Source of the DNA: a candidate division FCPU426 bacterium
Lineage (GTDB): Bacteria; Oederibacteriota; PGYV01; Palsa-1178
NCBI GenBank assembly: GCA_963840035.1
Contig: CAWIXE010000002.1
Location: forward strand, 992,099 to 1,056,098
Direction: 5' to 3'
Length of the DNA stretch: 64,000 nt
Part shown: piece by piece, positions 2,870-62,706 of the stretch
Numbering within the stretch: position 1 is the first letter of the stretch
How the letters are laid out: every line of letters begins with the position of its first letter
Position numbers and translations under genes: made by a program
The notes under the pieces: generated by a model
Seen by the model: the letters and a program-made list of their open reading frames with translations, nothing else
The model's database searches: none
What the model was told of the DNA's origin: nothing

Positions 2870-4726
2870 CTAAAAAGGAATTACCCCGCCCACCAGCAAC
2901 TGTATATTCCCCGCCGACATTGAATCCACTCCGTCAGGAAGCGGGCTGCTCATTATGGATGTGTAGCCAATGAGCCCGTCCAGCTGGATTTTTCCCATGG
3001 CATATCCCGCGCCAAGCGTTATTGTAAGGTCGTTTTGGTTGGGATTATCAGCGGTGCCCGGCGCCGGGCCGCTTACTCCTCCGGCTTTGGTTTTTTCAGA
3101 GGTTGTTGAAAAAGATAAACCGGCCCTTAACGCAAGCTCCCTGGAGAGCTTGTATTCACAACCGGCAGACGCTTTAATTGTGGATTTATCGTCAGTTGAC
3201 TCGCCTCCGGTGTACTTCGCCCCCTGTCCGTTATTTTCAAATTTAAATTCAACGGGTATGAGCAGTGATTCTGAAAGGTTCATCGTCGTGCCGGCTGCTA
3301 TGCCGAGATAGCCAAGCGATATTGTTGTGGGATCCGTATCGGTTGAACTGCTGAAATATTTATACCCCGCGCCTCCTAACTGCACGCCGAGGCCCAGCGT
3401 AAATATTCCGAACCTGTAACGTCCCTTAACTCCGAAGTTCATAAGGGATCCGTCCTTTGCCGGGCTGTATGCAGGCAAATCAGTCGTTGTTGACGCTCCG
3501 GTGCTTATTGTCGTTACAGTCCGTTTGGATGTTGACTTTCCGCCAATCCCGGCTGTCATGCCGAACCCCGCGAGCAATTCAAGATTATCCTTTTCATAAG
3601 CGCCGGCAAGCGATACATTAACTCCTGATGCGGCAATATCCGTGACTGTCGCCACATGAAATCCCATCATCTCATATGTGTCTGTAACTTTAATATTCCG
3701 CAGGTCTATATATGTCTGCGCGCTGTTTACCGAAGGCGCGCTGTATAATGTCATGGAAGCTCCCGGCCATGGCGCGAGCGAGCTTTTATCCGAAACCATC
3801 AATCCTGCCGTAACTTTTCCTGCCGACGCGGCTAATTCAGGGACATATGAGGCTGAAAGCCCCCACTCAATCTGGCTTGTCTCTGTTTTTGTGAGCGCGC
3901 CAAAAGCCAGGTCGCCAATTTCGTCAAACCATCCTCCGTTATAGCCGGCATATACGCCGGCTGAAAATCCGCGGAAGATCAGTCTTGAGTACTCAACCTG
4001 AGTCATAAGCACATTCGCAGGCGCCTTGACTTCCGTTGAGAATCCGCCGCCGGACATTTTTGTGGCAAGCCCTACGTTCATATAGAATAATTTCAGGTTA
4101 AGGACATCACTGTTTGTCAGCCAGTACGTGACAGCGCTATAATTCCTTACCGGATCGGCCGACAGCGGGAATCCGCCGCCGCCCAATTCAAATGTGGAGT
4201 CAATAGGGGGTGATGACACGGACTTTGACCAGGCGCTGAAATAACCTGTTATTGCAGAGGCCAGGTTCTTTCTCGGCCTTAAAACAAGGCCCGAAGCGAA
4301 TCCGGTACCGCCGTACATGTCAAAAGCCGACGACGCGTCGCGCAGTGTAAGCTCAGGGGCGCCCAGCGCAGCCATCCTGCTGTAACTGCCGTTGTAATAA
4401 TAAGCGCCGCCGCCTGCCGCGCCGCGGGGTTTTAAGGAATCAATGTATTTCTTAAGAGCCGGTGATTTTTTTATTTCATATGATTTTTCCAGGTATTGCG
4501 CCGCGCCTGCCCTGTCCTTCATGGCCAGCCTGCAGTACCCCATATACATAAAAGCCGCAGCGTTTTTGGGGTTTAAAGACGCAGCGCCTTCAAAAGCCGT
4601 AAAAGCGGCTGAATACTTCTTTTGGGCATATAGCTTCGAGCCATTTTCCATATAGGTTTTTTCAGAAATACCGAACAACGAAATCGAAAACATGAACAGA
4701 ATGATTATAATTGCGTTTTTTTTCAT
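2870..4726 (-). CDS. secreted TPR-containing protein with C-terminal beta-rich (outer-membrane-like) region
   Basis: Signal peptide (MKKNAIIIILFMFSISLFG), TPR-like N-terminal segment, Gly/Ser/Thr-rich alternating C-terminal region ending in aromatic residue. Confidence 0.5.
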   Translation of the reverse strand: MKKNAIIIILFMFSISLFGISEKTYMENGSKLYAQKKYSAAFTAFEGAASLNPKNAAAFMYMGYCRLAMKDRAGAAQYLEKSYEIKKSPALKKYIDSLKPRGAAGGGAYYYNGSYSRMAALGAPELTLRDASSAFDMYGGTGFASGLVLRPRKNLASAITGYFSAWSKSVSSPPIDSTFELGGGGFPLSADPVRNYSAVTYWLTNSDVLNLKLFYMNVGLATKMSGGGFSTEVKAPANVLMTQVEYSRLIFRGFSAGVYAGYNGGWFDEIGDLAFGALTKTETSQIEWGLSASYVPELAASAGKVTAGLMVSDKSSLAPWPGASMTLYSAPSVNSAQTYIDLRNIKVTDTYEMMGFHVATVTDIAASGVNVSLAGAYEKDNLELLAGFGMTAGIGGKSTSKRTVTTISTGASTTTDLPAYSPAKDGSLMNFGVKGRYRFGIFTLGLGVQLGGAGYKYFSSSTDTDPTTISLGYLGIAAGTTMNLSESLLIPVEFKFENNGQGAKYTGGESTDDKSTIKASAGCEYKLSRELALRAGLSFSTTSEKTKAGGVSGPAPGTADNPNQNDLTITLGAGYAMGKIQLDGLIGYTSIMSSPLPDGVDSMSAGNIQLLVGGVIPF

Positions 4727-11226: not shown

Positions 11227-14049
11227 TCAGCACTTCGTCCTGCCCATGTGCTTGCACAGGTACTGCCCTGTATAGGAATTCTTCACCTTCATTATTTCTT
11301 CCGGCGAACCTACAGCTACCACATTTCCGCCTTTATCCCCGCCTTCAGGGCCTATGTCTATGATATAGTCGGAGTTTTTAACAACATCAAGGTTGTGTTC
11401 TATTACCACAACCGTATTTCCCAGCTCAACCAGCCTGTTTAATACCGTCAGCAGTTTTTCAATATCCGCGAAATGCAGCCCTGTTGTGGGCTCGTCAAGT
11501 ATGTAAAAGGTGGAGCCTGTGGAGCGCTTGCAGAGCTCTTCGGCGAGCTTTACCCTCTGCGCTTCGCCGCCGGAGAGGGTTGTCGCCTGCTGTCCCATTG
11601 TTATATAGCCAAGCCCCACTTCATCAAGCGTTTCAAGGACAGTTTTTATCTTGGGTACGTTGGCGAAGAACTTTAACGCGTCCTCCACCCTCATATTCAG
11701 GACATCTGATATTGATTTATCCTTATAAAGTATCTCCAGGGTCTCCCTGTTATATCTCTTACCACCGCACTCCTCGCACGGCACATATACATCCGGCAAA
11801 AAGTGCATTTCTATCTTGATAATGCCGTCTCCGCCGCATACTTCGCACCTGCCGCCCTTGACATTAAAACTGAAACGCCCCGGTTCGTATCCGCGCAGTT
11901 TTGCTTCCTTGGTATTCGCGAAGATGTCCCTTATCTCGGTAAAAACACCCGTATATGTGGCCGGGTTTGAGCGCGGCGTCCTTCCTATGGGAGACTGGTC
12001 TATCTCTATGACTTTGTCCACCTGCTGCCAGCCAATCATTTCCTTATAACCCGAGGGCCTTAAACCGCCCCTGTAAACCTCATACATGAGAGCCGGGAAA
12101 AGAGTCTCCGCAATCAGCGATGATTTGCCCGAGCCTGATACGCCCGTGATGCATATGAAATTACCCAGCGGGAACCTGACATTTATGTCCTTTAAGTTAT
12201 TCGTTGTGGCGCCGCGGAGCTCTATGTACTTTTCCGCGCTTCTTTTTGATGTCTTTGGTATGGTTATCTTTGTCTTGTTATTTAAATATTTCGCCGTAAG
12301 TGATGTCTTGTGTTTTAAAATATCCTCCAGCGTCCCTGCCACAACAATTTCGCCGCCATGAACGCCCGGCCCGGGGCCCATGTCTATAACAAAATCGGCC
12401 TTGACTATTGTTTCCTCGTCATGTTCGACGACTATGACTGTATTCCCGAGGTCCCTCAGCTTTTTCAGGGTGCCAAGGAGTTTTTCGTTGTCGCGCTGGT
12501 GAAGCCCTATGGAGGGTTCGTCAAGGATATAAAGCACGCCCATTAACCCCACGCCTATCTGGGTGGCAAGGTGTATCCTCTGGAATTCGCCGCCGGAGAG
12601 CGTGCCTGATTTGCGGTCCAGGGTCAGGTACGCAAGGCCGACGTTTAAGAGGAACTGCAGCCTTCCTTTTATCTCCTTGAGGATCTGCTTTGATATAAGC
12701 TCGTCCTTTTTTGAAAGTTCAATCGAATTAAAATAAGCGTAGGCCTTTTCAATGGACATGGAAGATGCTTCAACAATGGTCTTCCCGCCCACGCGCACAT
12801 TCGCGGCCTCGGGCTTTAGCCTTTTGCCGCCGCATGTCCGGCATTCCTTTTCCATCATGTATTTCTGAAATATGTCGTCGCGTATCCTCTCGGTATCAGT
12901 ATCCTTATAGCGCCTTTCCAGGAACGGTATGAGCCCTTCAAACCCGCCTGTGTGCTTCCAGTCGGACGTATAACTTTTGTATTTATATTTGATGTTCTCG
13001 TCGGAACCGTATAAAATTATCTTCCTTATCTTATCCGGTAGTTTTTTAAATGGTATGCTAAGGCTGAATTTAAAATGCTCGGCTATGCCTGAAACCAGGT
13101 GCCAGTAATACCCGTCCCTGTTGCCCCACGGTTTTAAAGCCCCGTCCTGTATGGACAGTTCCTCGTTTACCACAAGCTTTTCATCCACTTCCACCCTGCT
13201 GCCTATTCCCATGCATTCCGGGCACGCGCCAAACGGGCTGTTAAACGAGAACAGCCTGGGCTCAAGCTTCTGCATTGAGAAGCCGCACTTCGAGCATGAG
13301 AGCTTTTCGGAGAAAAGCGTGTCTGTGTTTTTTTCCGAATCATTTATGATGGCAATACCCTCGCCTATTTTTACGGCGAGCTCCACAGACTGGGTTATCC
13401 TTTTCTTTTCCGCCGCGGACACGGCTATCCTGTCGACCACTATTTCCACGCTGTGTTTTTTGTTCTTTTCAATGGTTATCTTGTCTTCCACGGATTTCAC
13501 AACGCCGTCCACACGGACCCTTAAAAAGCCTTCTTTCTTAATATTCTCAAACATTTTGGAGTACTCGCCTTTTCTTCCCGAGATTACCGGGGCGAGTATG
13601 AGTATCTTCGTGCCTTCCTTCATTTCCAGCACCCGGTCAGTTATCTGCTGGACGCTTACCGACTTTATCTGGGTTCCGTCATTGGGGCAGTATGGCACGC
13701 CGATCCTGGCCCAGAGCAGCCTGAAGTAATCGTAAATCTCGGTAATGGTCCCTACTGTGGACCTCGGGTTTGACCCGGCGCTTTTCTGCTCTATGGCGAT
13801 TGCCGGCGATAGACCTTCTATGGTATCAACATCAGGCTTCTGCATCTGCCCGAGGAACTGCCTGGCGTACGCTGAAAGCGATTCCACGTAGCGCCTCTGG
13901 CCTTCCGCGTATATGGTGTCAAACGCCAGCGAAGACTTGCCGGAGCCCGATACCCCCGTTATGACAACGAGCTTGTCGCGGGGTATGCTGATATCTATAT
14001 TCTTGAGATTGTGTTCCCTTGCGCCTTTGATTGTTATGAATGATGCCAC
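11227..14049 (-). CDS. uvrA: excinuclease ABC subunit A
   Basis: 940 aa; '[57 protein letters not shown]'; duplicated ABC ATPase modules and zinc-finger cysteines. Confidence 0.95.
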
Positions 14050-14059
14050 TTTACACCTG

Positions 14060-14764
14060 TTATTGTAGCAGCCCTTGCGGATTGCTTATTTTCTTCTCAC
14101 TTAACATGAAAAGAATTCTGTCGTACGCGTACTTTTTTGTTTCCTTATCCTTTGTGTTCTTATAGACCCAGGCCCAGTACTTTGCCGCCTCATCAGGGGT
14201 TTTGGAGACTTCATATATGTTTCCCAGCAGCCTTTCAATTATTGCGGGATGGTCGTTAAACTTCAGCGCGTCCTCCAGCAGGCTTATGTATTTAAGGGTA
14301 TCCCCCTGCTTGCTGTACATGATGGCCGCCATGTAATACCTGAGTTTCCAGAACTGCGGGTTATAACGCAGCCCCTTTTGTATCACGGCAATTGCCTCGT
14401 CATATTTTTTAAGGTTAAACGCGAGTATGGCTCCGCCGTAAGTGTAAGCGAAGGTAAAGTGCGGGTCAGCGTCAGTCATGTTGTCAATATACGTGTAGAG
14501 TTTGGTCCACCTGCCGGTCATATTGGACCTGTCGCCGTAATACTGCAGGAAGGATATGTATTCAAAATCCGCCAGCAGCGCCCTGTATCCGAAGGAAACG
14601 CCCATGATATGGTCAAACTTCTTATACGAATGCGGTGTCAGAAAATACCAGTCAGGCTGTGTGGCGAAAAGCATTTTTGCGGCGCCGGAGCTGAAAAAAC
14701 ACATTCCAGCCGCCATGATAACAGCCGATACGGCAAGCACGGACTTCCTGGCAAAAGATCCCAT
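14060..14764 (-). CDS. hypothetical protein with N-terminal signal/anchor and TPR-like helical repeats, co-operonic with ABC transporter
   Basis: Start set at [20 protein letters not shown] (the ORF-track N-terminus overlaps the permease gene). Confidence 0.45.
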
Positions 14765-14765
14765 T

Positions 14766-15539
14766 TTAGAATTCCTTTTTTTCAAATATAAACGAAGCAG
14801 CCATGAGCGTGATGGCCGCATACAGCACAGCGTAACCCAGCACAAACCCCAGATAATTGATGTTAAAGATCCCTTCGGGCGAGGATATTTTATCCTTAAG
14901 GTTAAAAAGCTCCATGTTTGGCACTATGTAATAAACCGCGTCAACCGCTGTTTTTACGACCATATCCGAACCCGCCTTTACAAGGTTCTTTAAATGTATG
15001 GTCAGGTGGCCCAGCGCGTAGAGGAACACGAGGTAAATAACGCATGTCGGGACAGACGTCGTAATCACGGAAAGAAGCAGCGCGGTCGAGGCGATAGTGG
15101 CCACGCCCATGAAGGAATAAAACGCCGACACAATTAACCGCAGGTCCCACGGGTCCCCGCCTTTAATCGAAATGATCACCATAAGCACGATGAGCATCAT
15201 CAGCACATTAATAAAAAGGGTCGCGGCGATGCCTAGATATTTGCCCACTATGTATTCATGGCGCCTGATCGGCTTGACCATAATCATGGATATGGTCTTT
15301 AACTCTGTCTCCTCGAACATCTGGATGGTGATGGAAAGCGCCAATGTGAGGAACGCGAATATCGATATGGCAAAAAGTCCGAAATCCAGCACCATCTTCA
15401 TCTCAGATTCCTGGGCAAGCGCCGATATGGCAAGAGAAAAGCCTATGGCAAAGACCGCGAATATGACAAGAATATTCAGCATCTTGTTCCTGAAGCTCTG
15501 CTTGAAGATGTATTCCGCCACAGCGAGAATCCGCCTCAT
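14766..15539 (-). CDS. ABC-2 family transporter permease
   Basis: 257 aa, 6 predicted TM helices, typical ABC-2 permease size and topology; 4-nt overlap with upstream ATPase gene. Confidence 0.7.
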   Translation of the reverse strand: MRRILAVAEYIFKQSFRNKMLNILVIFAVFAIGFSLAISALAQESEMKMVLDFGLFAISIFAFLTLALSITIQMFEETELKTISMIMVKPIRRHEYIVGKYLGIAATLFINVLMMLIVLMVIISIKGGDPWDLRLIVSAFYSFMGVATIASTALLLSVITTSVPTCVIYLVFLYALGHLTIHLKNLVKAGSDMVVKTAVDAVYYIVPNMELFNLKDKISSPEGIFNINYLGFVLGYAVLYAAITLMAASFIFEKKEF

Positions 15540-27097: not shown

Positions 27098-27130
27098 TTA
27101 AAAAAAAAAAGCCCGGCTTTCGCCGGGCTT
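27098..27130 (-). terminator. Rho-independent terminator downstream of SPFH gene (bidirectional form)
   Basis: Hairpin 'gcccggctttcgccgggc' flanked by A11 on one side and T4 on the other; on minus strand GC stem followed by 11 U. Confidence 0.7.
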
Positions 27131-27149
27131 TTAAATTTCAGGATTTGTT

Positions 27150-28025
27150 TTACTGCTGACCCGCCTCGACTTCGTTTATCTGCTTGAGGTCAATTATCAT
27201 CCCGCTTCCATTGCCCGACATGATTTTCGGAAGTTTCCCGTCCCATTTGTCTATCCACATTTTTTTAAGCATTATCCCTGAAAGGGTTGTTTTCTGCATT
27301 CTCTGCGCTTCAGCATCGCCGCGCGCCTGGTTGATTTTCGCCTGAGCTTCAGCCTCAGCCTGCTTTGCCACATAAATGGCTTTCTTTGCGTTTTGCTCAG
27401 CCACCTGTTTTTCCTCGATAGCCCTGTTAAATTCGTCGCCGAAAGTGAAATTCACAAGGCTCACATCAATTACAATTATCCCGTACTTTTCCATCCTGAG
27501 CTTAAAATTATTGTCTATTTCCAGTTTTAAGGATTCCCTTTCGGTTAATATGGACTCCGCGTTCTTTTTAGCCGTTGCCGCCTTTACCACTTCATTGACA
27601 GCCGGGTTCATGATATCGCCGAGCACGTCATTCTCGTCGCCGATGGTCTGGTAAATTTTGTTAACCTGCGCCGGGTCCAGCTTCCAGTTGATCGCAACCC
27701 TTGTATGGACGTTCTGCATGTCCTTTGTCGCCGCCTGAGCGTCAACTTCGGACTTTTGTATCTGTACCGTCATTTTCTTTACAGCCGTAAATATGGGGAC
27801 CCTCCAGTGAAAGCCTTCATCATAAACCTTACTCATATCCACCTTACCGAGGTTAACTATAACACCCCTCTCGCCCGGCCCGATAATGACAAACGGGACA
27901 AGCAGGAAAAACACTACTACAACTACAACTCCAGCAATAAGAAACTTTACAACATTGTTTGTTTCCGGCATGTTAAACACCCCTTCTTTATTTTTGGTTA
28001 ATGGAATTTCGACTTTCCGCGCCAT
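27150..28025 (-). CDS. SPFH/band 7 (prohibitin-like) membrane protein
   Basis: N-terminal TM anchor, SPFH core, Ala/Glu/Gln-rich coiled-coil tail 'AEQNAKKAIYVAKQAEAEAQAKINQARGDAEAQR'. Confidence 0.8.
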   Translation of the reverse strand: MARKVEIPLTKNKEGVFNMPETNNVVKFLIAGVVVVVVFFLLVPFVIIGPGERGVIVNLGKVDMSKVYDEGFHWRVPIFTAVKKMTVQIQKSEVDAQAATKDMQNVHTRVAINWKLDPAQVNKIYQTIGDENDVLGDIMNPAVNEVVKAATAKKNAESILTERESLKLEIDNNFKLRMEKYGIIVIDVSLVNFTFGDEFNRAIEEKQVAEQNAKKAIYVAKQAEAEAQAKINQARGDAEAQRMQKTTLSGIMLKKMWIDKWDGKLPKIMSGNGSGMIIDLKQINEVEAGQQ

Positions 28026-32045: not shown

Positions 32046-32083
32046 AAAAAAAAACGCCGGCGGACAGCGCGGGAGCGCTGTCC
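32046..32083 (-). terminator. Rho-independent terminator immediately after 32084..32602 gene
   Basis: Minus strand reads 'ggacagcgctcccgcgctgtcc' followed by 'gccggcg' and U9. Confidence 0.65.
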
Positions 32084-32602
32084 CTACTCTGCGTACACCC
32101 ATTCAAAATCTCTTATTTTACTATTCCAATAAGCAATCGCGCTGTCAGCGTGAAACCGTTTAAACATGATTACCGGCGTTTTAAAAGTCCGGCCCTGCCA
32201 TGTCCCGGTGAAACTTTCCAGGCTGAGGTTATCCGGTAAGGATTTATACTTTCCCAGGAAATATTTCCTGTAATTGGAGCCTTCGCTGATCAAAGCGATA
32301 GCCTGAGCGGAAAAATTCACAACAACCCCGTTTTCCACCACATCCGACCTGACAATAAAGGCATAATCCTTTATGCCGTCAGAGTTAAAATCCGTGTTTA
32401 CATATCCCGGGCTTTTTAGTGTTATCTTGTGTTTCTTTAAAAAGGTTAAAAAATCATCGCTTAAATCCTTTACAGTCATTGTCCTTGCGTCAGGGCCGAA
32501 TGACATGAGCACGCTTTCAAAATTAAGGCCTTCAATTGGCCAGATCTGTGAAAAACAGAAAACAGGAAGTAATATTAAAACAAGTACAAAGATTTTTTTC
32601 AT
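32084..32602 (-). CDS. secreted hypothetical protein
   Basis: 172 aa, signal peptide MKKIFVLVLILLPVFCFSQ; no recognised motif. Confidence 0.5.
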   Translation of the reverse strand: MKKIFVLVLILLPVFCFSQIWPIEGLNFESVLMSFGPDARTMTVKDLSDDFLTFLKKHKITLKSPGYVNTDFNSDGIKDYAFIVRSDVVENGVVVNFSAQAIALISEGSNYRKYFLGKYKSLPDNLSLESFTGTWQGRTFKTPVIMFKRFHADSAIAYWNSKIRDFEWVYAE

Positions 32603-38865: not shown

Positions 38866-39432
38866 TTACTCAAAAACGTGCGTCAGCTGCACTCCGGCAA
38901 AAATACCGCTCAAATCAATATACCCCGGATCAAAAGGCGCGTAGTTAAAGCCGGCTTTGTAATACCTGTATCCGACTTCCAACCCGGCATAAAACTGCCC
39001 CTTTACCTGATAAAGAAACGCTTCTTTAACCGCAAATTCAAAACCTCCGCCTTTTTCATCATTTACATCTATTCTATACCTTGCAATTCCATATCCGGCC
39101 GACACTGTTGACCAGAGCATATATTTTTTTTCATCAAATAACACCATATAGCCAAGGTCCACCGAAGGTATCGGCGAGATGATTCTCATGTTATGGCCTG
39201 ACAAATCCAAATCCTCAATGCCCAAATGATTATAAGCAAACCCCGCGCTGAAACCATTTTCCCAAACCCAGCCCAACCCTCCGTTTGGCACGGCAACCCT
39301 TCCGGATTTTATCCCGAAATCTTTATTTTCCCCGTACATCTCCTGATCATATCCGAGAGTAAGGTATAATCCGGCATTTATAATCGCCGACATAGCAGCA
39401 ACAAAAAAAAGTATCAGCACTGTTCTTTTCAT
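38866..39432 (-). CDS. small outer-membrane beta-barrel-type protein
   Basis: Signal peptide MKRTVLILFFVAAMSAIINA; Gly/Tyr-rich alternating strands; C-terminal 'LTHVFE'. Confidence 0.5.
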   Translation of the reverse strand: MKRTVLILFFVAAMSAIINAGLYLTLGYDQEMYGENKDFGIKSGRVAVPNGGLGWVWENGFSAGFAYNHLGIEDLDLSGHNMRIISPIPSVDLGYMVLFDEKKYMLWSTVSAGYGIARYRIDVNDEKGGGFEFAVKEAFLYQVKGQFYAGLEVGYRYYKAGFNYAPFDPGYIDLSGIFAGVQLTHVFE

Positions 39433-42333: not shown

Positions 42334-44745
42334 ATGATGCTTGTCAGTTACAATTGGCTCAAAAATTACATTAATTTAACCATCTCCCCTGCGGAACTGG
42401 CTGATAAACTTAATATAGCCGGGCTTCCTGTAGAAGAGATCACAGAGAAGAAGGCACCCTTTACCAATGTAGTCATAGGTAAAGTACTTGCGGTTGAAAA
42501 ACACCCTCAGGCAGACAATCTTAACCTCTGTGACGTATCAGACGGTACAGAAACCTTAAAGATAGTATGCGGCGCGGCAAATGTCGCCGCCGGACAAACC
42601 ATAGCCCTTGCCAGGATTGGGGCTGTCCTTCCCGGAGATTTCAAGATTAAGAAAGCAAAGATCAGGGGCGTGGAATCCAACGGCATGATTTGTTCCGAGT
42701 CTGAGCTTGGCCTAGCAAAAGAATCATCAGGCATCATGGTCCTGGATGAGAAAAAGTATACTCCCGGACAGCCCTTTGAGCCGGTAAAACCCGACACAAT
42801 TTTCAGCCTTGAGATAACCCCGAACAGGCCTGACCTGCTGTGCGTAACCGGCGTCGCCCGTTTTATTTCGTCGCGCCTTGGCATTGATTTTAAGTACCCG
42901 TCATGCGAAGTATCCCCCGGCAACATTGACCAGTCACTCGACGCCGGCGCTGTGGTTAAAATCGAGAACCTTGACGCGGTACGCTGCCCGAGGTACGCGG
43001 CAAGGGTCATAAAGGGCGTTAAGATATCCGATTCACCTGAGTGGCTAAAGGAAGCCTTAACCGCCGTGGGTGTGCGGCCTATTAATAACGTAGTCGACAT
43101 CACGAATTATATACTCATGGAGATAAACCATCCCCTTCACGCTTTTGACTTGAGCAAGCTCAAGGGAAAAACCATAAAGATAAGGACCGCTGTACACGGC
43201 GAAAAAATTCTCGCCCTTGACACTAAGGAATACCATCCTCACGCTGAGGACCTTGTTATAGCCGATGACAAAGACCCTGTGGCCTTAGCAGGTATCATGG
43301 GCGGCGAACATTACTCCGTAGATTCTTCCACTTCCACGGTCGTCCTCGAGTCAGCCTGTTTCCAGCCTAAGACAGTAAGGAAGACATCACGCCGCCTGGG
43401 GGTATCTTCTGATTCCTCCTACAGGTTTGAGCGCGGTATTAACATAGACAACGTCACGAATGCCTTAAACAGGGCCGTGGAGCTCATCATACAGGTCGCA
43501 GGCGGAAAAGCCTCAAAGAACATCACGGACATTTACCCCTCGCCTGCCGTGCCGAAAGTCATTTCCCTGCGCTTTGCAAGGGTCAATCAAATACTCGACA
43601 TGGCGCTTTCAGCGCAGGAAATTAAGGCCCTCATAGAAATGCTTTACTTCCCCATAAACAACGTGTCCGCGGATTCAATGGAAGTAACAATCCCGGGTTA
43701 CAGGGTCGATATTTCCGAGGAGATAGACCTTATCGAGGACATCGCCCAGATAATGGGTTATGACAAAATACCGGTAAACCTGCCCGCTTCCCTGATGGGC
43801 GTCAGCCGCGAGTCAGGCATCGCGCTGTTCAAAAAATCGCTATCCAACTCAATGATGTCATGCGGTTTTTCCGAAGTAATAAACTACAGTTTCGTCAACA
43901 ACAAGCTCTTAAAGCAGCTTAAAGCGGAAACCCCTCTTCCCGAAGGAGCGATAGCCCTTAAGAACCCTTTTAATGACGAAGAAACGCATATGAAAACCAC
44001 GCTTCTGCCGGACCTTATTAAAAACCTAATCACCAATTACAATAACGAAAATGAGAACATACACATATTTGAGGTCTCTAACTCATTTTTAAAGCACGGC
44101 AGCAGCTACCTCCAGCTGCCGAAGATCGGCGCTGTAACCTATGGCAGCGTCATTAACCAGGCTTTTAACCGCAAGGAATTTACGACTGATTTTTATTACC
44201 TGAAATCGGTCATCGGCTCCCTGTGTCATACTGCGTCGCCCGAAATAGAACCTGTTTATAAAACGGCCCCAGCCGGCAATGATTTTTATGAATATTTCGC
44301 GGAGATATCAATAAACGGCAGGATAATCGGCACGGCCGGCCAGATAAAACAGGACATACTTTATGACAACAAATTCAAATCAAAGGCATTTGCCTTTGAG
44401 ATAGATATTGAAGCCCTTTATTCTTTCATTTCAAAGAACACGTCTTACAGCCATATCGCGCGCTTCCCTTCGGTTAAAAGGGATATTTCAGTGGTTGTAA
44501 AAGACTCGGTGGCCCAGGCCAGCGTTGAGTCGCTTATTACGGCGGATTATAAGGCGCTCATAAAGTCGCTCACCCTTTTTGACTTGTATAAAGGAAGCCA
44601 GGTGCCGGAAGGCTCAAAATCTTTAAGCTACAACATTATCTTCCAGTCTGAAAAAAAGACTCTCTCTGAACAGGATATAAATAAAGCCATGGAACGCATT
44701 ATTGGAAGGTTAAAATCCGAACTTCAGGCTGAATTGAGGTCATAA
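42334..44745 (+). CDS. pheT: phenylalanine--tRNA ligase beta subunit
   Basis: 803 aa; N-terminal tRNA-binding domain 'GKVLAVEKHPQADNLNLCDVSDGTETLKIVCGAANV', B3/4 and B5 regions. Confidence 0.95.
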   Translation: MMLVSYNWLKNYINLTISPAELADKLNIAGLPVEEITEKKAPFTNVVIGKVLAVEKHPQADNLNLCDVSDGTETLKIVCGAANVAAGQTIALARIGAVLPGDFKIKKAKIRGVESNGMICSESELGLAKESSGIMVLDEKKYTPGQPFEPVKPDTIFSLEITPNRPDLLCVTGVARFISSRLGIDFKYPSCEVSPGNIDQSLDAGAVVKIENLDAVRCPRYAARVIKGVKISDSPEWLKEALTAVGVRPINNVVDITNYILMEINHPLHAFDLSKLKGKTIKIRTAVHGEKILALDTKEYHPHAEDLVIADDKDPVALAGIMGGEHYSVDSSTSTVVLESACFQPKTVRKTSRRLGVSSDSSYRFERGINIDNVTNALNRAVELIIQVAGGKASKNITDIYPSPAVPKVISLRFARVNQILDMALSAQEIKALIEMLYFPINNVSADSMEVTIPGYRVDISEEIDLIEDIAQIMGYDKIPVNLPASLMGVSRESGIALFKKSLSNSMMSCGFSEVINYSFVNNKLLKQLKAETPLPEGAIALKNPFNDEETHMKTTLLPDLIKNLITNYNNENENIHIFEVSNSFLKHGSSYLQLPKIGAVTYGSVINQAFNRKEFTTDFYYLKSVIGSLCHTASPEIEPVYKTAPAGNDFYEYFAEISINGRIIGTAGQIKQDILYDNKFKSKAFAFEIDIEALYSFISKNTSYSHIARFPSVKRDISVVVKDSVAQASVESLITADYKALIKSLTLFDLYKGSQVPEGSKSLSYNIIFQSEKKTLSEQDINKAMERIIGRLKSELQAELRS

Positions 44746-53809: not shown

Positions 53810-54766
53810 TCATTTGAATAATTCAAATATTCTTTTAAAGACATTTCCCGCAGCCGCGTTCTTTAAGGCGCCCGCGCTGCCGGCTTCCCTTGTCATGCGC
53901 TGTGATATTTTCGCTGCTATTTCCTTTATGCATTCAGACGCCCTGGAATTCGGATGGAGCACCGTGTAGGGACGCTGGGCCATTACGCTTGAAAGCACAT
54001 TTTTATCCCTGTAAATAAAGCCATATGATTCCACAAAGGTATTTAGAAAGCGGCGGGCTAAAAGCACCACCCTTGACGCGATTTCCTTTGCCTCTTCCTT
54101 TGAATTAACCATGTTTACTATGAGCTTAAGGGGCACTGTTGATTTATTCATGGATGATACTTTTATAAGACCATAAGCATCCATTAACGCCGTAGGTTCC
54201 GGAGTGGTGACTACGATGGAATAATCAGAGGCGTATATGAAGCTCATTGTGTTTCTGCTTATGCCGGCTCCCGTGTCTATGAGCAGTACATCCACCATAT
54301 CCTCAAGCTCAGATATCTTTTCAATAAATTCAGAACGCTGCTGATTGCTTAAGTTGACAAGCTCCTTAACACCCGATCCGCTGGCAATTACCTTAATGCC
54401 GTACTCTGTCTCAGTTATTATATCCTTAATGTCCTTTTCCCCGCGCAGGACATGCACCAGGTTATATTTGGGGTTAATACCGAGCAATATGTCAATATTC
54501 GCAAGGCCTAAATCCGCGTCCAGTATCATTACGCGGTTTCCCATCTTGGATAGTTCAAGCGCCACGTTAACCGTAAAATTAGACTTGCCAACCCCGCCTT
54601 TTCCGCTGGCAACGGCTATGACCTTGGTTGTGGGCCTTGCTTCATGCGAATCAACTATCTCCTCGCCTGTCTCGGGGTCAATTTCTCCGCCGCCTTCAGG
54701 GGATGCGTTCATTGATTCCTGTTTTCTGGATTTTACGAGTTCCCTTAGCCTCTCTGCCTGATCCAT
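53810..54766 (-). CDS. flhG: flagellar number regulator FlhG (MinD-like ATPase)
   Basis: Deviant Walker A 'VIAVASGKGGVGKSNFTVNVA'; follows flhF. Confidence 0.85.
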   Translation of the reverse strand: MDQAERLRELVKSRKQESMNASPEGGGEIDPETGEEIVDSHEARPTTKVIAVASGKGGVGKSNFTVNVALELSKMGNRVMILDADLGLANIDILLGINPKYNLVHVLRGEKDIKDIITETEYGIKVIASGSGVKELVNLSNQQRSEFIEKISELEDMVDVLLIDTGAGISRNTMSFIYASDYSIVVTTPEPTALMDAYGLIKVSSMNKSTVPLKLIVNMVNSKEEAKEIASRVVLLARRFLNTFVESYGFIYRDKNVLSSVMAQRPYTVLHPNSRASECIKEIAAKISQRMTREAGSAGALKNAAAGNVFKRIFELFK

Positions 54767-55989
54767 GTTTCAAAATCTCCTTTGATGACAAGTCTGGATA
54801 TTACTTTTGGGTCCGCGATTTCAAGGTCATCCGGCACTGTCTGCCCGACCGTTAAAAATGATACCGGGATACCGCCTGAACCAACTGAAAGGTTAAGGAG
54901 CATTCCGTAGTTTTTGGTCTCGTCAAGTTTGGTAAAAAGCATCCTGTGTATGGGGACCATACCAAAATTATTAATAACGCTTAAAGCGTCATAATACTTT
55001 GTCATGGCGCTGATGACTATATGTGTTTCAATAGGGGAATGCACTTCAAGGAATTCCTTGAGTTCCGCCAGATGCTGCCTGTTCCTGGGGCTCCTGCCTG
55101 CCGTGTCAAAAAATATGAGATCCTTATCCATGTGCTTGTTAATTACCTTTTTAAAATCAGAAGGCGTCAGTACAATTTCCACCGGAATCCCCATTATCTC
55201 GCCGTATTTCTTAAGCTGCAGGTCCGCCGCTATCCTGTAAGTATCCGCCGTAACCATCACGACGCTTTTGCCTTCTATGAGCGCGTACTTCGCTGCCAGT
55301 TTGGCTATGGTGGTTGTTTTTCCTACGCCCGTGGGGCCTATGAATGCCACTACTTTAGAGCTTCCCGGCGTTGTTTTAATCGGCCCGGATACCTGCACCA
55401 TGTTCGCTATATAATCAAGAAGGTATTGCTCCATGAAGACTTTATTATTTATCTGAGTATCATTTAACTGCGCGTTTATATTCTGAAGCGTGCGGTATAC
55501 AAGGCTTTCCTCAACTCCGTTCTCAATTAACATTTTCTGTATGCGTCCTATACCCTGTTTTAAACTCACGGCAGGCTGCATGGAAGACATTGTCTCGCGC
55601 TGAGGACGCATGGCTGAATTTAAAGCCACTTTGCCTTCACTTAATTCCCTGGCAAGGGCTTCATTTTTCATGGAAATATCTTCAACCCGGTTATATACGG
55701 GCTGCATGGGTTCAAGACGCGGCTGGATATGATGCTGCTGGGATGATTTTTGTTGCTGATTATTTTGCTGCGGTGAATACCGCTGGGGTTCATTCATTGA
55801 CTGGCGGGGTTTCTCGACATTGATGTCTATTCCAGCGGTTACTTCAGTCATTTCCCTTCCAAAAAGCCCGAACACCCCGCCTTTTTTATACTTTTTCGTA
55901 TGAAGTATGACAGCTTCCGGGCCGAAATCCCTCTTAACTTTGGCGAGCGCTTCCTGGAGTGTGTCTGCCTCGTATTTTTTGATCCTCAT
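54745..55989 (-). CDS. flhF: flagellar biosynthesis GTPase FlhF
   Basis: SRP-type GTPase 'VVAFIGPTGVGKTTTIAKLAA', 'DTAGR'; follows flhA. Confidence 0.85.
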   Translation of the reverse strand: MRIKKYEADTLQEALAKVKRDFGPEAVILHTKKYKKGGVFGLFGREMTEVTAGIDINVEKPRQSMNEPQRYSPQQNNQQQKSSQQHHIQPRLEPMQPVYNRVEDISMKNEALARELSEGKVALNSAMRPQRETMSSMQPAVSLKQGIGRIQKMLIENGVEESLVYRTLQNINAQLNDTQINNKVFMEQYLLDYIANMVQVSGPIKTTPGSSKVVAFIGPTGVGKTTTIAKLAAKYALIEGKSVVMVTADTYRIAADLQLKKYGEIMGIPVEIVLTPSDFKKVINKHMDKDLIFFDTAGRSPRNRQHLAELKEFLEVHSPIETHIVISAMTKYYDALSVINNFGMVPIHRMLFTKLDETKNYGMLLNLSVGSGGIPVSFLTVGQTVPDDLEIADPKVISRLVIKGDFETWIRQRG

Positions 55990-58085
55990 ATATCAACTTT
56001 CACCGTCCCTACAGCGCGGACCTCAACTTTAGGAAGGATCTCGTTGTATGAAAGAACGGCAAGATTTGGCAGTATCTTCTCCGCGATTTTCCTGAAATAA
56101 CTTCTGATAATAGGCGAGCAGAGTATGACCGGGTCATATTCAGTGCTGGCGCTTTTTCTGTATTCCTGGATTAAGCTGTTATATATCATCTGGATAACCC
56201 TTGGTTCAAGTCCGATAATACCCGGCCTGTCGGATGCCCTGACAGAATCAACTATCTTCTGCTCAAGCCCCGAATCAAGTGTTATGGCGTACATAATGCC
56301 GTTCTTGGTATGCTTGCTTGTGAACTGCCGCGCCATACCCTGCCTTACAAACTCCGTTAACAGGTCTGTTTCTTTTGTGGTTTTCGCGTAGTCAGCAAGT
56401 ATTTCAAATATGGAAACAAGGTCCCTGATGGAAACTTTTTCCCTTAATAAATTCTGCAGTACTTTCTGGACATCGCCCAGCGAAAGCGCGCCCGGGACAA
56501 GCTCGTCTACAACAGCCGGATTGTTCTTTCTGACTACTTCCACGAGTTTCTGGACATCCTGCCTTGTTAAAAGCTCGTCAGAATGTGTCTTAATGATCTC
56601 TGATAAGTGCGTGGACATAACCGAAGGCACATCCACGACAGTATAGCCTTTCATTTCAGCTTTTTTCTTTTCATCCTCTTTAATCCACTTTGCCGGCAGG
56701 TTAAATGCCGGGTCTTTGCCGGCCACGCCGTCTAAATCAGAACCGTCAGATCCTGGCTTCATGGCAAGGTAATAACCTATCTCAACCTTGCCTGAGGATA
56801 CTTCAACACCCTTAATTTTAATTGAATATGAGTTCGACGGCAGCTGCATGTTGTCCCTGATCCTGATGGGCGGCACCACAAGCCCCAGGTCAATGGCTAT
56901 CTGTTTGCGGAGCATTGTCACCCTGTCCAGAAGATCCCCGCCCTGTGATGGGTCTACAAGCGGTATGAGGGCAAAACCTATCTCAAGCTCCATGGTATCA
57001 ACCTGTATAAGCGGCATGACATTCTCAGGCTCGCGCTTGACTTCTTCCTTGTCTTTTTTAACGGCTTCTTCTTCCTCTGTTTTCTTGACAGCCAGGTTCA
57101 GCGTATACGCCAGTATCCAGGCAGCGATGGCGATTATGAAGAATAATACTTTAACCAGCGGCGACGGAAATACAACGCCCAGAAGGAAGAGCACAATTCC
57201 CACAATGCTGATGGCCCTTGGTTGCCCGAGCATTTCTTCCGCAAAATCCTGCCCGAGATTGGCTTCAGAGGCAGCCCTGGTTACTATAATACCTGTTCCG
57301 ACCGATAATAAAAGCGCGGGTATCTGTGTAACAAGGCCTTCGCCGATGGTCAGTATGGTGTATGTTATGGCTGCTTTTGAAAGTGAGAAGCCGTGGAACA
57401 TTATTCCTATGAAGAATCCCGCTACGATGTTAATGATAACAATAACTATGGCGGCTATCGCGTCTCCGCGCACAAATTTTGAGGCACCGTCCATGGCGCC
57501 GTAGAAGTCAGCTTCCTTTTCTATAGACCTGCGCCTTGCCCTTGCCTGTTCATCTGTTATAAGGCCTGCGTTTAAGTCAGCGTCTATGGACATCTGTTTG
57601 CCCGGCATGGCGTCCAAAGTAAAACGCGCCGCCACTTCGGCGACTCGCTGCGCGCCGGAAGTGATTACGACAAACTGGACAAGAATTATAATGGCGAAAA
57701 TAACGAGACCTACCACCAGGCCGCTGAAATCCGCGGACCCTACGACAAAGTTCCCGAACGTTTCTATGACCTTACCCGCCTCAGCTTTGCTTAAAATTAA
57801 CCGGGTAGCGGATATGTTAAGGGCAAGCCTGAATACGGTTGTTATAAGAAGAAGCGTCGGGAAAGTGGAAAAGTGCAGAGGTTCCTGGGTATATACGGTA
57901 ACCAGAAGTATCAATAAAGCAAGGGCAATATTCAATGTAAGCAGTACATCAAGCAGCCATGTGGGCATGGGTACAACTATCATGAGTACTACAGCTATAA
58001 TAGCCATAACTATGACAAGGTCTACCGACCTTCTCATAGCAAATGCAAGGCCGGCTTTGTTATTGTCCGCGGCTCCGTTTGCCAT
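55986..58085 (-). CDS. flhA: flagellar export apparatus protein FlhA
   Basis: 699 aa; conserved N-terminal TM region 'FRLALNISATRLIL...' and cytoplasmic domain. Confidence 0.95.
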   Translation of the reverse strand: MANGAADNNKAGLAFAMRRSVDLVIVMAIIAVVLMIVVPMPTWLLDVLLTLNIALALLILLVTVYTQEPLHFSTFPTLLLITTVFRLALNISATRLILSKAEAGKVIETFGNFVVGSADFSGLVVGLVIFAIIILVQFVVITSGAQRVAEVAARFTLDAMPGKQMSIDADLNAGLITDEQARARRRSIEKEADFYGAMDGASKFVRGDAIAAIVIVIINIVAGFFIGIMFHGFSLSKAAITYTILTIGEGLVTQIPALLLSVGTGIIVTRAASEANLGQDFAEEMLGQPRAISIVGIVLFLLGVVFPSPLVKVLFFIIAIAAWILAYTLNLAVKKTEEEEAVKKDKEEVKREPENVMPLIQVDTMELEIGFALIPLVDPSQGGDLLDRVTMLRKQIAIDLGLVVPPIRIRDNMQLPSNSYSIKIKGVEVSSGKVEIGYYLAMKPGSDGSDLDGVAGKDPAFNLPAKWIKEDEKKKAEMKGYTVVDVPSVMSTHLSEIIKTHSDELLTRQDVQKLVEVVRKNNPAVVDELVPGALSLGDVQKVLQNLLREKVSIRDLVSIFEILADYAKTTKETDLLTEFVRQGMARQFTSKHTKNGIMYAITLDSGLEQKIVDSVRASDRPGIIGLEPRVIQMIYNSLIQEYRKSASTEYDPVILCSPIIRSYFRKIAEKILPNLAVLSYNEILPKVEVRAVGTVKVDI

Positions 58086-60362: not shown

Positions 60363-61124
60363 CTAAAAGCTTACTATTAAAGCCCTCGCGATAAGATGCC
60401 AGCCGTCTACAAGTATGAAAAGCAGTATTTTAAACGGCAATGAAATCATTACGGGCGGCAACATCATCATACCCATGGACATTAAGACGCTTGCCACCAC
60501 CATGTCTATAATCAGGAATGGTATGTATATCATGAAACCAACTGTAAACGCGGTCTTTAATTCGCTTATGATAAATGCCGGTATGAGTACGGTAGTCGGG
60601 ACTCCGTCCTGATTTTTCGGACGGGCTGTTTTTGACAGGAATATAAAAAGCGCAAGGTCCTTTTCCCTTGTCTGTTTGAACATAAAAAGCCTTAAAGGCT
60701 TTACAGCCGCTTTCATGGAATCATCTATGGTTATTTTATTGTCAACATACGGTTTCCAGGCCTTGTCATATATTTCCTGCCCCGTAGGCATCATAATAAA
60801 AAATGTCATAAAAAGCGCGAGCCCTATAAGAATCTGGTTCGGCGGTATCTGCTGGCTTCCAAGCGCCTGCCTTAGGAATGATAGCACAATGACGATCCTT
60901 GTAAAAGAAGTCATGAGCATCAGTATGGCCGGGGCCATGGTTAAAATGGTCAAAAGAAGTATTATCTGTATGGAAGCCGCCACGTCTTTCGGGGTATTCG
61001 CGTTGGTAACGCTTATCCCTATCTTCGGTATGGTTATCTCGGCAAAAACGCTGCTGAAGGCAAACACGCACATCATCAGCACCGAAACAGCTATGATACT
61101 TTTTTTGATCCACTTGGATTTCAT
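60363..61124 (-). CDS. fliP: flagellar export apparatus protein FliP
   Basis: 'MTSFTRIVIVLSFLRQALG...IPPNQILIGLALFMTFFIMMP' FliP signature. Confidence 0.9.
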   Translation of the reverse strand: MKSKWIKKSIIAVSVLMMCVFAFSSVFAEITIPKIGISVTNANTPKDVAASIQIILLLTILTMAPAILMLMTSFTRIVIVLSFLRQALGSQQIPPNQILIGLALFMTFFIMMPTGQEIYDKAWKPYVDNKITIDDSMKAAVKPLRLFMFKQTREKDLALFIFLSKTARPKNQDGVPTTVLIPAFIISELKTAFTVGFMIYIPFLIIDMVVASVLMSMGMMMLPPVMISLPFKILLFILVDGWHLIARALIVSF

Positions 61125-61749
61125 TTGGGCCCGTCCTTTTTCCTGAATTTATCCACTATATTTTTAATGACCACGTTGCCGCCGTCCACAAGTTTCTTCC
61201 CCTGTTTAAGATAGGTGGCTTTTAACTCTTCGTCAAACTTGCTTTCAGCCTTAAGCCTGTATTTGGATATGTACTCATTTGCCTGCTCTTTAATTTTAAT
61301 GATTGTTTCAGGGTCAGTAACTTCGGTGATGGTATTTAATCCGCTGGATGACGAACCCACGAGCATTATCTTGCCGGCAAACTCCACGACATAGAGCAGG
61401 TTCTTGCTGTCGAGGTATTCTTTTGCCAGGACCGTGACGACATTCTCGCTGCGCATCGGTATGGATGCCTTGACATAAAAGTATTTAATGGCTGCCATAA
61501 TTATATATATCAGGATAATTATGATTATTAACGAACCAATGAGGCTTATTACCGTGGATAAAACGCTGTTGGAAGGGATAGCCCTCGGGTATTCTATGTC
61601 CTTATAGGCATTTGACAGATATCCGGAATCCTTCTGCGCCGTATTTACAGCAGTATTGCTTACGGACGCAGTGGATTTATCTGCCGCGGCGCATAATAGT
61701 AGCGGTGCTAAAAAAAAAGAAACGCTGCGGTTATAATATTCTTTTTCAT
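61121..61749 (-). CDS. fliO: flagellar protein FliO/FliZ, interrupted by a frameshift in a 9-nt homopolymer
   Basis: ATG at 61749 sits 3 nt after the fliY stop; reads MKKNIITAAFLFF then TAG, while the +1 frame runs stop-free into the 61121..61498 ORF through a TM helix (VISLIGSLIIIIILIYII); A9/T9 tract at 61710..61718. Confidence 0.55.
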
Positions 61750-61752
61750 TAT

Positions 61753-62706
61753 TTATATCTTCGGTATTCTGTCCGCCGGCCTGACGATATCAGTGATCCT
61801 GATACCAAAGTTTTCGTCTATGACTACGACTTCGCCTTTGGCTATGTACTTCTGGTTGACAAGGATGTCAACCGGTTCGCCAGCGAGCTTATCGAGTTCG
61901 ATAACCGATCCCGGGGAGAGTTCAAGCACGTCACGGACAAGTTTTTCTGTCCTTCCGAGCTCTACTGTTACCTGCAGCGGAACGTCCATGACGATGTCAA
62001 GGCTGCGGTCATAAACTGAACCTACCGCGCGTTCCGGCTGTAATTCAGATGTTGATATATTCTGTGCTGTTGCGGCTTTCTGCATTTTTTTCCCTCCGCC
62101 TCCCGTGATATCTCCTACAAAGCCTTCTGTCGAGGCTTCTGCTTTTTTACCTGACTTTATAGCCGATGCTACTTCGCCCGAAAATATAAGGGCAAGCTTG
62201 CCCGGATTAAATTCGCCGATGTTAAGGTCCGCGTCAACAACAAGCACTTCCCCGTCTATGCCGGGTATCGAACCTGAACCAAGGTCAATAACACTGACTT
62301 CTGAAGGATTAGACATCAATCCCTGGCCTATCTGCGACGCTACTGAACTGATAATCGCGTCATTTACCTGGTTTGCAAGCTCTGTTACCGCGCTCAAATG
62401 AAGGTCTTCGAGGGCAGCGGGAGGATTTGATCCGTCCTGGCCTATCATGAGGTCTGCCATTATAGCGGCCTGCTCCTCTGATACTATCAACGCGACATTT
62501 CCCATGCCGTCGCCAAGTTCTATGGGAACAACAAGGTTCCTGCCCGGCATCATTGAAGCGACTGATCCCGAGTCTGTTTCCTCAACCGAACTCATGGAAA
62601 CAGAAGTAGCTTTCCCGAGCAGTTCGGATAACATCTTTTCCCCGTTTGGTATGGCATTACCTAATATCTCTGCTGCGTTATTTTTTTCTTTGTCATTTAA
62701 GGCCAA
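61753..62706 (-). CDS. fliY: flagellar motor switch protein FliY (CheC-like domain + FliN domain)
   Basis: C-terminal FliN region 'DVPLQVTVELGRTEKLVRDVLELSPGSVIELDK'; N-terminal CheC-like region. Confidence 0.85.
   Translation of the reverse strand: MALNDKEKNNAAEILGNAIPNGEKMLSELLGKATSVSMSSVEETDSGSVASMMPGRNLVVPIELGDGMGNVALIVSEEQAAIMADLMIGQDGSNPPAALEDLHLSAVTELANQVNDAIISSVASQIGQGLMSNPSEVSVIDLGSGSIPGIDGEVLVVDADLNIGEFNPGKLALIFSGEVASAIKSGKKAEASTEGFVGDITGGGGKKMQKAATAQNISTSELQPERAVGSVYDRSLDIVMDVPLQVTVELGRTEKLVRDVLELSPGSVIELDKLAGEPVDILVNQKYIAKGEVVVIDENFGIRITDIVRPADRIPKI

Follow-up and report, generated by a model that had tools for sequence, protein, structure and literature searches.

The window, i.e. 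the whole 64,000-nt stretch analysed here from a candidate division FCPU426 bacterium, contains the flagellar genes fliM-fliY-fliO-fliP-fliQ-fliR-flhB-flhA in this order, all on the minus strand, with fliO located between fliN/fliY and fliP. Intact copies of fliM, fliY, fliP, fliQ, fliR, flhB, flhA, flhF and flhG were identified in the window. The first-pass annotation had described a fliO start codon 3 nt past the fliY stop, followed by a run of nine T (A9 on the plus strand) and a stop codon, and direct reading of the sequence confirmed this arrangement. As sequenced, the gene reads ATG AAA AAG AAT ATT ATA ACC GCA GCG TTT CTT TTT TTT TAG, and the stop codon stands in the context U UUU UUU UAG on the transcript. 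Such 'shifty stops' are an established context for -1 slippage. The addition of one T to the T9 run gave a fliO ORF of 209 aa ending at 61121, and its product scored above the Pfam threshold for FliO, in agreement with the full-length protein of about 208 aa anticipated in the annotation; removal of two T also opened the frame, giving an ORF of 208 aa. The features of the locus are summarized in Table 1.

Table 1. Coordinates of fliO, its neighbors and the long homopolymers in the window
Feature	Position	Strand	Description
fliY/fliN (FliMN_C domain)	61753..62706	-	Stop TAA at 61755..61753, 3 nt before the fliO ATG
fliO 5' fragment	61708..61749	-	ATG at 61749..61747, 13 codons (MKKNIITAAFLFF), then TAG at 61710..61708
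Predicted Sec-type signal peptide	61682..61749	-	Residues 1-23 (MKKNIITAAFLFFLAPLLLCAAA), inferred from sequence features
T9 homopolymer (A9 on plus)	61710..61718	-	-1 length variant of the clade-wide T10
T10 tract in the clade			fliO nt 32-41, encoding [ILV]-F-F-[LF]; tract of the window at codons 11-14
Rest of fliO in the -1 frame	61121..61711	-	Open throughout, residues 14-209
Leu14 of restored FliO	61711..61709	-	TTA
Stop of the -1 frame	61123..61121	-	
Predicted TM helix	61487..61564	-	Residues about 63-88, inferred from hydrophobicity
125-aa remnant ORF (P0002 in the public collection)	61121..61498	-	Cytoplasmic FliO domain only
fliP	60363..61124	-	ATG overlaps the fliO stop (ATGA)
A11	27100..27110		T-tail of a minus-strand terminator hairpin
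A9	32046..32054		T-tail of a minus-strand terminator hairpin

In the downstream fliO frame, ATG, GTG and TTG were all absent between the tract and ATG 61498, and the 125-aa remnant is therefore the only callable fliO ORF. Nothing resembling a Shine-Dalgarno motif was obvious by eye in the approximately 20 nt upstream of ATG 61498 (ATCCTGATATATATAATT). As the start codon of fliP overlaps the fliO stop, translation of fliP is probably coupled to that of fliO. Neither mutS nor mutL was present among the large ORFs of the window that were scanned (879, 940, 821 and 803 aa).

The restored FliO matched Pfam PF04347 with 25.7 bits (cut-off 22, E = 1.3e-5) over residues 102-177, and its orthologues were likewise annotated as FliO with PF04347. 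The full-length orthologues were about 203-219 aa where checked; those of about 204-217 aa found with the restored protein showed 44-60% identity to it and aligned with it end to end. As the alignment began at residue 1, the N-terminal part of FliO is ancestral. Judged from the sequence and the alignment, a hydrophobic stretch at residues about 63-88, the predicted single membrane-spanning helix, precedes the conserved domain. The signal-like N-terminus, the probable TM helix and the C-terminal part attributed to the restored protein in the annotation were all recognized. Conservation of the signal peptide among the orthologues was limited to the FF core and to AA close to the cleavage site. 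The annotation had also considered that orthologous 5' ends might place the genuine start at the internal ATG 61498. This start was ruled out, as the orthologues align from residue 1 and Met85, encoded by this ATG, sits inside the predicted TM helix.

Orthologues were searched with the restored protein, and fliO loci were fetched at the DNA level from one genome per species (L004-L015) and from metagenomes (L016-L029). The relatives were MAGs labelled FCPU426 or Goldiibacteriota, and 23 lineages other than that of the window were examined. Their submitter labels were candidate division FCPU426, Candidatus Goldiibacteriota, 'uncultured Spirochaetia' and, in one case, 'Aerophobetes'. Every fetched locus that includes the fliO 5' end had an uninterrupted T-run at the same codons, and it was an in-frame, uninterrupted T10 in 17 of the 23 lineages. 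The run started 31 nt after the ATG in most lineages and was the sole T-run of at least 9 nt in each locus. The encoded [ILV]-F-F-[LF] was fixed within an otherwise variable signal peptide. Neither the nucleotides flanking the tract nor the remainder of the signal peptide was conserved, and the ten T varied in length only. This conservation extended over lineages whose FliO proteins share 33-86% identity with each other (median 45%) and whose FliP proteins are 72-85% identical to that of the window. The outgroup L038, with a FliP of 69% identity, had a 177-aa FliO with neither the FF motif nor the tract.

Codon usage was then compared with this pattern. In the individual lineages, TTT accounted for 39-87% of the Phe codons, NTT for 16-56% of the Ile/Val/Leu codons and TTR for 8-46% of the Leu codons. 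The joint probability of the tract calculated from these values for 19 lineages was 10^-23.7, an order-of-magnitude guide that treats the lineages as independent and takes bulk codon usage in place of that at the 5' ends. When FliP, FliY, FliQ and FliR of these loci were aligned by codon, TTT and TTC were mixed in 29 of the 31 invariant Phe columns, and a single codon was kept in just 8 of 382 invariant amino-acid columns, indicating that synonymous sites are saturated. In the window, 11 of the 34 FF dipeptides were written TTTTTT, and one other [ILV]FF[LF] was present, encoded as GTGTTTTTCCTG. The codon-usage, Phe-column and outgroup comparisons together identify the tract as a clade-specific element maintained at the nucleotide level. 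They indicate that the selection keeping the tract intact acts on the nucleotide sequence, as DNA or RNA, and not on the protein, and the conserved 'FF' is most simply taken as a consequence of the T-run, not its cause.

The length of the tract varied in nature. A profile search listed 43 FliO clusters, of which the short ones on contigs reaching the fliO 5' end were looked up. Beyond the window, T9 alleles were found in L013, L030 (a Goldiibacteriota-labelled MAG), L031/L032, L033 and L035, and a T12 allele in L034; L013 was frameshifted exactly as the window. The tract was thus out of frame in 7 lineages, including that of the window, vs 17 with a verified T10, and about 32 of the 43 clusters were in frame at the protein level. 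The out-of-frame frequency of about 7 in 40 clusters (roughly 15%) is approximate, because the alleles beyond those of the window and L013 were obtained by targeting truncated proteins. The short cluster P0018 was uninformative as a further frameshift, since its contig ends within the gene; P0015 and P0041, on contigs of 1082 and 714 nt, are probably truncated in the same way and were left out of the count. Gene callers label the out-of-frame alleles as 'FliO' fragments of 124-172 aa (one of 202 aa), which are artefacts of the tract state.

Two comparisons within species isolated the change to the tract. The T9 alleles L031/L032 (from Logan SRR6058359 and JGI 3300016700) and the T10 alleles L010/L023 (from a MAG and Ga0181535) were identical over 2143 bp except for the tract, and so were the T12 allele L034 (SPAdes, coverage 636) and the T10 allele L039 (coverage 52) over 698 bp. 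No length difference was detected in the other within-species comparisons, namely L006/L017/L018/L037, L008/L020 and L009/L021. The contig names of the out-of-frame alleles beyond the window indicate short-read assemblers (SPAdes NODE_, MEGAHIT k141_). Hence, an uninterrupted, frame-setting tract lies within the coding sequence, and its length differs between otherwise identical relatives belonging to species other than that of the window.

The out-of-frame alleles were scattered over a neighbor-joining tree of the repaired FliO proteins. The sister of the window on this tree, L019, had T10, and the sisters L013 and L035, with 64% FliO identity, both had T9. The lengths of all seven out-of-frame alleles were divisible by 3, and T8 and T11 were unseen; this result has a p value of about 0.016 if both frame classes are taken as equally likely. 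A stop codon (TAG, TAA or TGA) directly followed the run in all six T9 alleles. In every repaired out-of-frame allele the shifted fliO frame was open, and the flagellar neighbors on these contigs were called at normal lengths, indicating that the alleles are not decaying pseudogenes.

These features are best accounted for by a conserved slipped-strand frameshift switch, or rheostat, acting on fliO, to which we assign a probability of roughly 0.55 from sequence comparison. The run in the window would represent the T9 state of the clade-wide T10 tract. We propose that the tract length flips in populations, since ten T:A pairs mis-align easily during replication. With T10, fliO would be in frame and would give full-length FliO with the signal peptide, periplasmic segment, TM helix and cytoplasmic domain; with T9 or T12, it would be out of frame and yield a peptide of 13-17 aa followed by a stop. 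FliO helps FliP to assemble into the export gate of the flagellum, and a stop at codon 14 should uncouple fliP translation, given the overlap of fliP with the fliO stop. As FliO assists FliP and fliP translation is probably coupled to that of fliO, loss of the fliO frame should abolish or strongly reduce the assembly of flagella. The outcome would be a heritable, reversible motility switch like those of H. pylori fliP and C. coli flhA. The phase-variable motility switch suggested in the first-pass annotation thus gained strong comparative support from the conserved T10 and the natural length polymorphism of the relatives; its reversible switching, its leakiness and its motility phenotype, the last expected from the role of FliO in Salmonella, are putative.

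The off state of such a switch is probably leaky, and the system would then resemble a dimmer rather than an absolute switch. RNA polymerase adding one U on U9 would restore exactly the T10 protein. The same would follow if the ribosome slipped by -1 on the U UUU UUU ahead of the stop: after slippage of the P-site tRNA-Phe, the next codon would be UUA or UUG, reproducing the T10 protein. T9 may therefore reduce expression without abolishing it. The single frame class of the variants and the T9 sister pair hint that rescue, and not a true off state, accounts for the tolerance of these lengths.

The T9 of the window itself may be a homopolymer miscall. In that case, the organism would have T10 and an intact fliO, with the consensus undercounting the homopolymer, a situation which is compatible with a switch in the clade and to which we give somewhat less than an even chance. 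The window comes from a 1.7-Mb metagenomic contig, suggestive of long-read assembly, and T10 is in frame in most of the other lineages, as described above. Look-ups of FliY, the FliO remnant and FliQ of the window found the organism's proteins in only one other place, a Logan contig of run ERR11594406, which also showed T9. This contig contains two additional 1-nt deletions (62766 and 59163), breaking the fliM stop and the flhB N-terminus. As such deletions are typical of uncorrected long-read errors and the contig probably stems from the reads that built this genome, the two T9 calls are probably not independent. Against a miscall, long intact ORFs fill the 64 kb densely, and apart from fliO no gene looked split. 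Runs of 7-8 nt occurred 24 times inside long uninterrupted ORFs, in addition to one straddling the start of the 2870..4726 ORF. Of the three runs of at least 9 nt, the other two are terminator T-tails (Table 1), which leaves the fliO run as the only long homopolymer within a coding sequence; the frameshift at this site goes beyond coincidence. Moreover, T9 was the consensus in five lineages assembled from short reads, so that a real T9 here would be unexceptional. A possible T9 error in the window leaves the conclusion at the clade level unaffected.

Another explanation places the function of the tract in the RNA. U10 would be conserved for expression, with polymerase slippage or -1 frameshifting fixing the fraction of full-length FliO and the DNA length variants being tolerated by-products that such slippage rescues in part; via coupling, the output of fliPQR would be set downstream of the abundant C-ring genes. 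We regard this as possible, though unlikely; it and the frameshift switch are not mutually exclusive. Deep conservation at the nucleotide level fits direct selection on such an element. The slippery motif U UUU UUU is present within U9/U10, every T9 allele reads U UUU UUU followed by a stop, and all seven out-of-frame alleles fall in the class that is rescued by one added U or a -1 slip. The occurrence of T9 in both sister lineages L013 and L035 points in the same direction, and a precedent exists in the type III secretion genes of Shigella (PMC5009743). In addition, the 45 nt just 3' of the tract folded modestly better than dinucleotide shuffles, with a mean z of -1.15 and 8 of 23 sequences below -2. 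The z means of the other segments folded were -0.44 to +0.45.

Several observations oppose this explanation. FliO needs no recoding in most lineages, as these are in frame; an out-of-frame arrangement was not conserved, being the exception beside 17 in-frame lineages out of 23 and scattered except in L013/L035. RNAalifold detected no consensus RNA structure around the tract, and the strong downstream hairpins were not those of the T9 alleles. Slipped-strand deletion bias alone could explain the excess of T9, and it could likewise underlie the excess of alleles divisible by 3. U10 could pair with the purine run that follows the AUG in 86% of cells, which would mask the start region. This A-run/U-run pairing was rejected: a shift of one column gave the same value, the invariance of one side precludes covariation, and the A-run was absent in several lineages. 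An intrinsic terminator or attenuator at the T-run was also ruled out by the lack of a conserved hairpin upstream (mean z +0.16 to +0.26).

A further proposal along this line is that U10 is a clade-wide programmed slippage element, predating the split between the FCPU426-like and Goldiibacteriota-like lineages, that sets the dose of FliO and FliPQR by stuttering of RNA polymerase, -1 ribosomal slippage at U UUU UUU or both. From the sequences we consider it improbable, and equally so that this dose would be set relative to the abundant C-ring proteins encoded upstream, via translational coupling. The hairpin-prone downstream sequence would possibly act as an aid in this scheme, and T9 and T12 would be viable low-gear states kept functional by slippage.

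The remaining two explanations carried little weight. Decay of fliO into a pseudogene in a lineage losing motility agrees with the interruption of the sequenced gene after codon 13, and is nevertheless very improbable: the remaining 196 codons are open and conserved, all the neighboring flagellar genes are intact, and the lesion lies exactly at the conserved hot spot, where like alleles recur in lineages whose close relatives have T10. Still less credible is that the T-run is a by-product of the T-rich codons of a hydrophobic signal peptide, the tract itself being free of selection and the frameshift an incidental mutation or error; although a T-run can encode the FF of a signal peptide (the window gene at 38866..39432 encodes MKRTVLILFFV via T8) and TTT exceeds 80% of the Phe codons in some lineages, codon bias and signal-peptide composition were ruled out as the cause by the joint codon-usage probability, the unfixed codons of conserved Phe in the neighboring genes and the FF dipeptides including the sole other [ILV]FF[LF] of the window, and the residues around FF vary freely.

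Frameshift switching of flagellar export genes by homopolymers is a textbook phenomenon of a small number of host-adapted pathogens, among them Helicobacter and Campylobacter, and the tract in H. pylori fliP is a C run. The statement in the first-pass annotation that flagellar export genes of these genera are switched by homopolymers is borne out by the literature, in which homopolymer phase variation is reported for fliP, flhA, flgR and flgS (PMC3930126). In H. pylori, a homopolymer change in fliP shifts the frame and truncates the protein, with no flagellar biogenesis (Josenhans et al. 2000, cited in PMC3930126). Both homopolymers lie inside the coding region for a membrane protein of the flagellar type III export apparatus; the gene here is fliO, the neighbor and assembly partner of fliP. 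The H. pylori variation occurs within strains of one host-adapted pathogen, whereas that of fliO spans a deep clade of uncultured environmental bacteria, and switching and phenotype were measured in the former and are deduced for the latter. For C. coli flhA and C. jejuni flgR/flgS, the same review (PMC3930126) describes base gain or loss in a homopolymer that turns expression off, with the reverse change restoring it. These tracts, like that of fliO, are A/T homopolymers in flagellar coding sequences, although the genes encode the export-gate protein FlhA and the regulators FlgR/FlgS rather than FliO. The Campylobacter variants were isolated in culture and from animals, while those of fliO are consensus polymorphisms between metagenome assemblies. 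No link between fliO and a homopolymer switch was found in the literature searched.

Runs of nine A or T cause transcriptional slippage in bacteria (PMC5009743). In Shigella, slippage restores the frame in spa13 and mxiE and gives truncated products in spa33 and mxiA (PMC5009743), and it affects the expression of an overlapping downstream gene (PMC5009743, PMC7762205). The Shigella runs are long A/T runs in type III secretion genes (PMC5009743, PMC7762205), and the fliO tract of 9-10 nt is in the slippage range. In Shigella the DNA sequence is constant and the shift arises in the RNA, whereas the DNA length itself varies in fliO.

The expected effect of losing FliO can be gauged from Salmonella, in which deletion of fliO drastically lowers motility; full-length FliO stabilizes FliP, and the cytoplasmic domain rescues the deletion only when overexpressed (PMC2947984). 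In both cases fliO directly precedes fliP; Salmonella FliO is a small bitopic membrane protein with the Pfam domain in its cytoplasmic part, an architecture also predicted for the restored protein. Salmonella FliO has 125 residues and the restored protein about 209, the latter having a signal-peptide-like N-terminus and an extra periplasmic segment with a conserved GYLS motif, unlike the former. The 125-aa remnant in the window is roughly equivalent to the Salmonella cytoplasmic domain that rescued on overexpression.

The site is thus a genuine conserved, length-variable frameshift tract, for which a role as a motility switch or dimmer is plausible on present sequence comparisons. Homopolymer frameshift control of a flagellar export gene is known; the unusually deep conservation sets the fliO case apart. 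If the switch is real, fliO joins the flagellar export genes under such control, and a contingency tract has stayed intact at the nucleotide level while the protein diverged to a median identity of 45%. This conservation bears on whether mutability itself is selectable or whether tracts persist through action at the RNA level. Since the tract is conserved to such an unusual depth, the RNA-level alternative is worth testing. Conservation of a contingency tract across such a deep divergence is unusual in itself, and fits direct selection on the RNA at least as well. The switch, if true, would also be placed in uncultured bacteria of peat, soil and sediment. The names of the relatives' records and samples (bog, palsa and contigs of JGI metagenomes) suggest an origin in the environment, mostly in peat-type habitats.

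The out-of-frame T9 state of the fliO tract is shared by the comparison loci L013 (2500-2508) and L035 (66-74), which represent sister lineages with a FliO identity of 64%. The shared T9 reflects either independent slips in the two lineages or a single T9 state that was kept through their speciation. If T9 persisted through this speciation, the T9 alleles would be functional via recoding, that is, slippage of RNA polymerase or the ribosome at the U-run restoring the fliO frame.

The sequence just 3' of the tract was compared among 23 lineages. The 45 nt following the T-run showed a local hairpin tendency, with the hairpin beginning 1-5 nt past the run and a mean z of -1.15 against dinucleotide shuffles, while the means of other segments along fliO ranged from -0.44 to +0.45. 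The Ala-rich (GCN) end of the signal peptide may contribute to this tendency, and neither a consensus structure nor covariation was established for the 45 nt in the 23 lineages.

The gene context and start calls were also inspected in relatives. In the locus L004 (2471-3115 of JAJFUW010000193.1), the deposited annotation starts FliO at an internal Met (182 aa, protein entry P0011), although the T10 run is in frame and the full ORF from the upstream start encodes 214 aa, indicating that not every short FliO call in the clade corresponds to a frameshift. A fliO-like gene with T10 was present on the short metagenome contig OMKS01031388.1 (L025, 2359 nt; region 286-1500), where the upstream gene was not fliY but an ORF for a TraG-type P-loop ATPase that continues in frame into fliO with the intervening stop absent. 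This contig may be chimeric, or the arrangement may be a truly different gene context.

The Logan contig ERR11594406_1848971, derived from the same organism, had one base fewer than the window at two positions, along with one SNP at 63142. The missing base at 62766 resulted in the loss of the fliM stop codon, and that at 59163 made the A6 run at the 5' end of flhB one base shorter. These differences look more like read errors left uncorrected than true biological variation.

Besides the fliO tract, the window contains just two homopolymers of at least 9 nt, an A11 and an A9 run when read in plus-strand orientation. Both are the T-tails of minus-strand terminators, ordinary features that are usable as internal controls for calibrating homopolymer read length. 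As to shorter runs, the minus-strand gene 38866..39432 encodes a predicted secreted protein (MKRTVLILFFVAAMSAIINAG...), in which a T8 run (39403-39410) encodes FF of the signal peptide, demonstrating that T-runs in signal peptides do exist elsewhere in the same genome. The minus-strand ORFs 14060..14845 and 14766..15539 share 80 nt as listed (14766-14845) with a T7 run inside the overlap, which is probably due to a start called too far upstream, not to a second frameshift. The flagellar cluster extends past flhA-flhF-flhG (53810..58085) toward lower coordinates.

Features in the window discussed here, with other genes present in it
Feature	Position	Strand	Remark
uvrA	11227..14049		
ORF, ABC-2 membrane family	14766..15539	minus	
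GC-rich hairpin terminator with T-tail (A11 on plus)	27100-27132	minus	downstream of gene 27150..28025
GC-rich hairpin terminator with T-tail (A9 on plus)	32046-32070	minus	downstream of gene 32084..32602
pheT	42334..44745		
879-aa protein with FliK hook-length-control C-terminal domain	46977-49616	minus	extension of flagellar cluster
FapA-family protein	50635-52293	minus	extension of flagellar cluster
45-nt segment 3' of the fliO tract	about 61665-61709	minus	compared among 23 lineages, mean z -1.15 against dinucleotide shuffles
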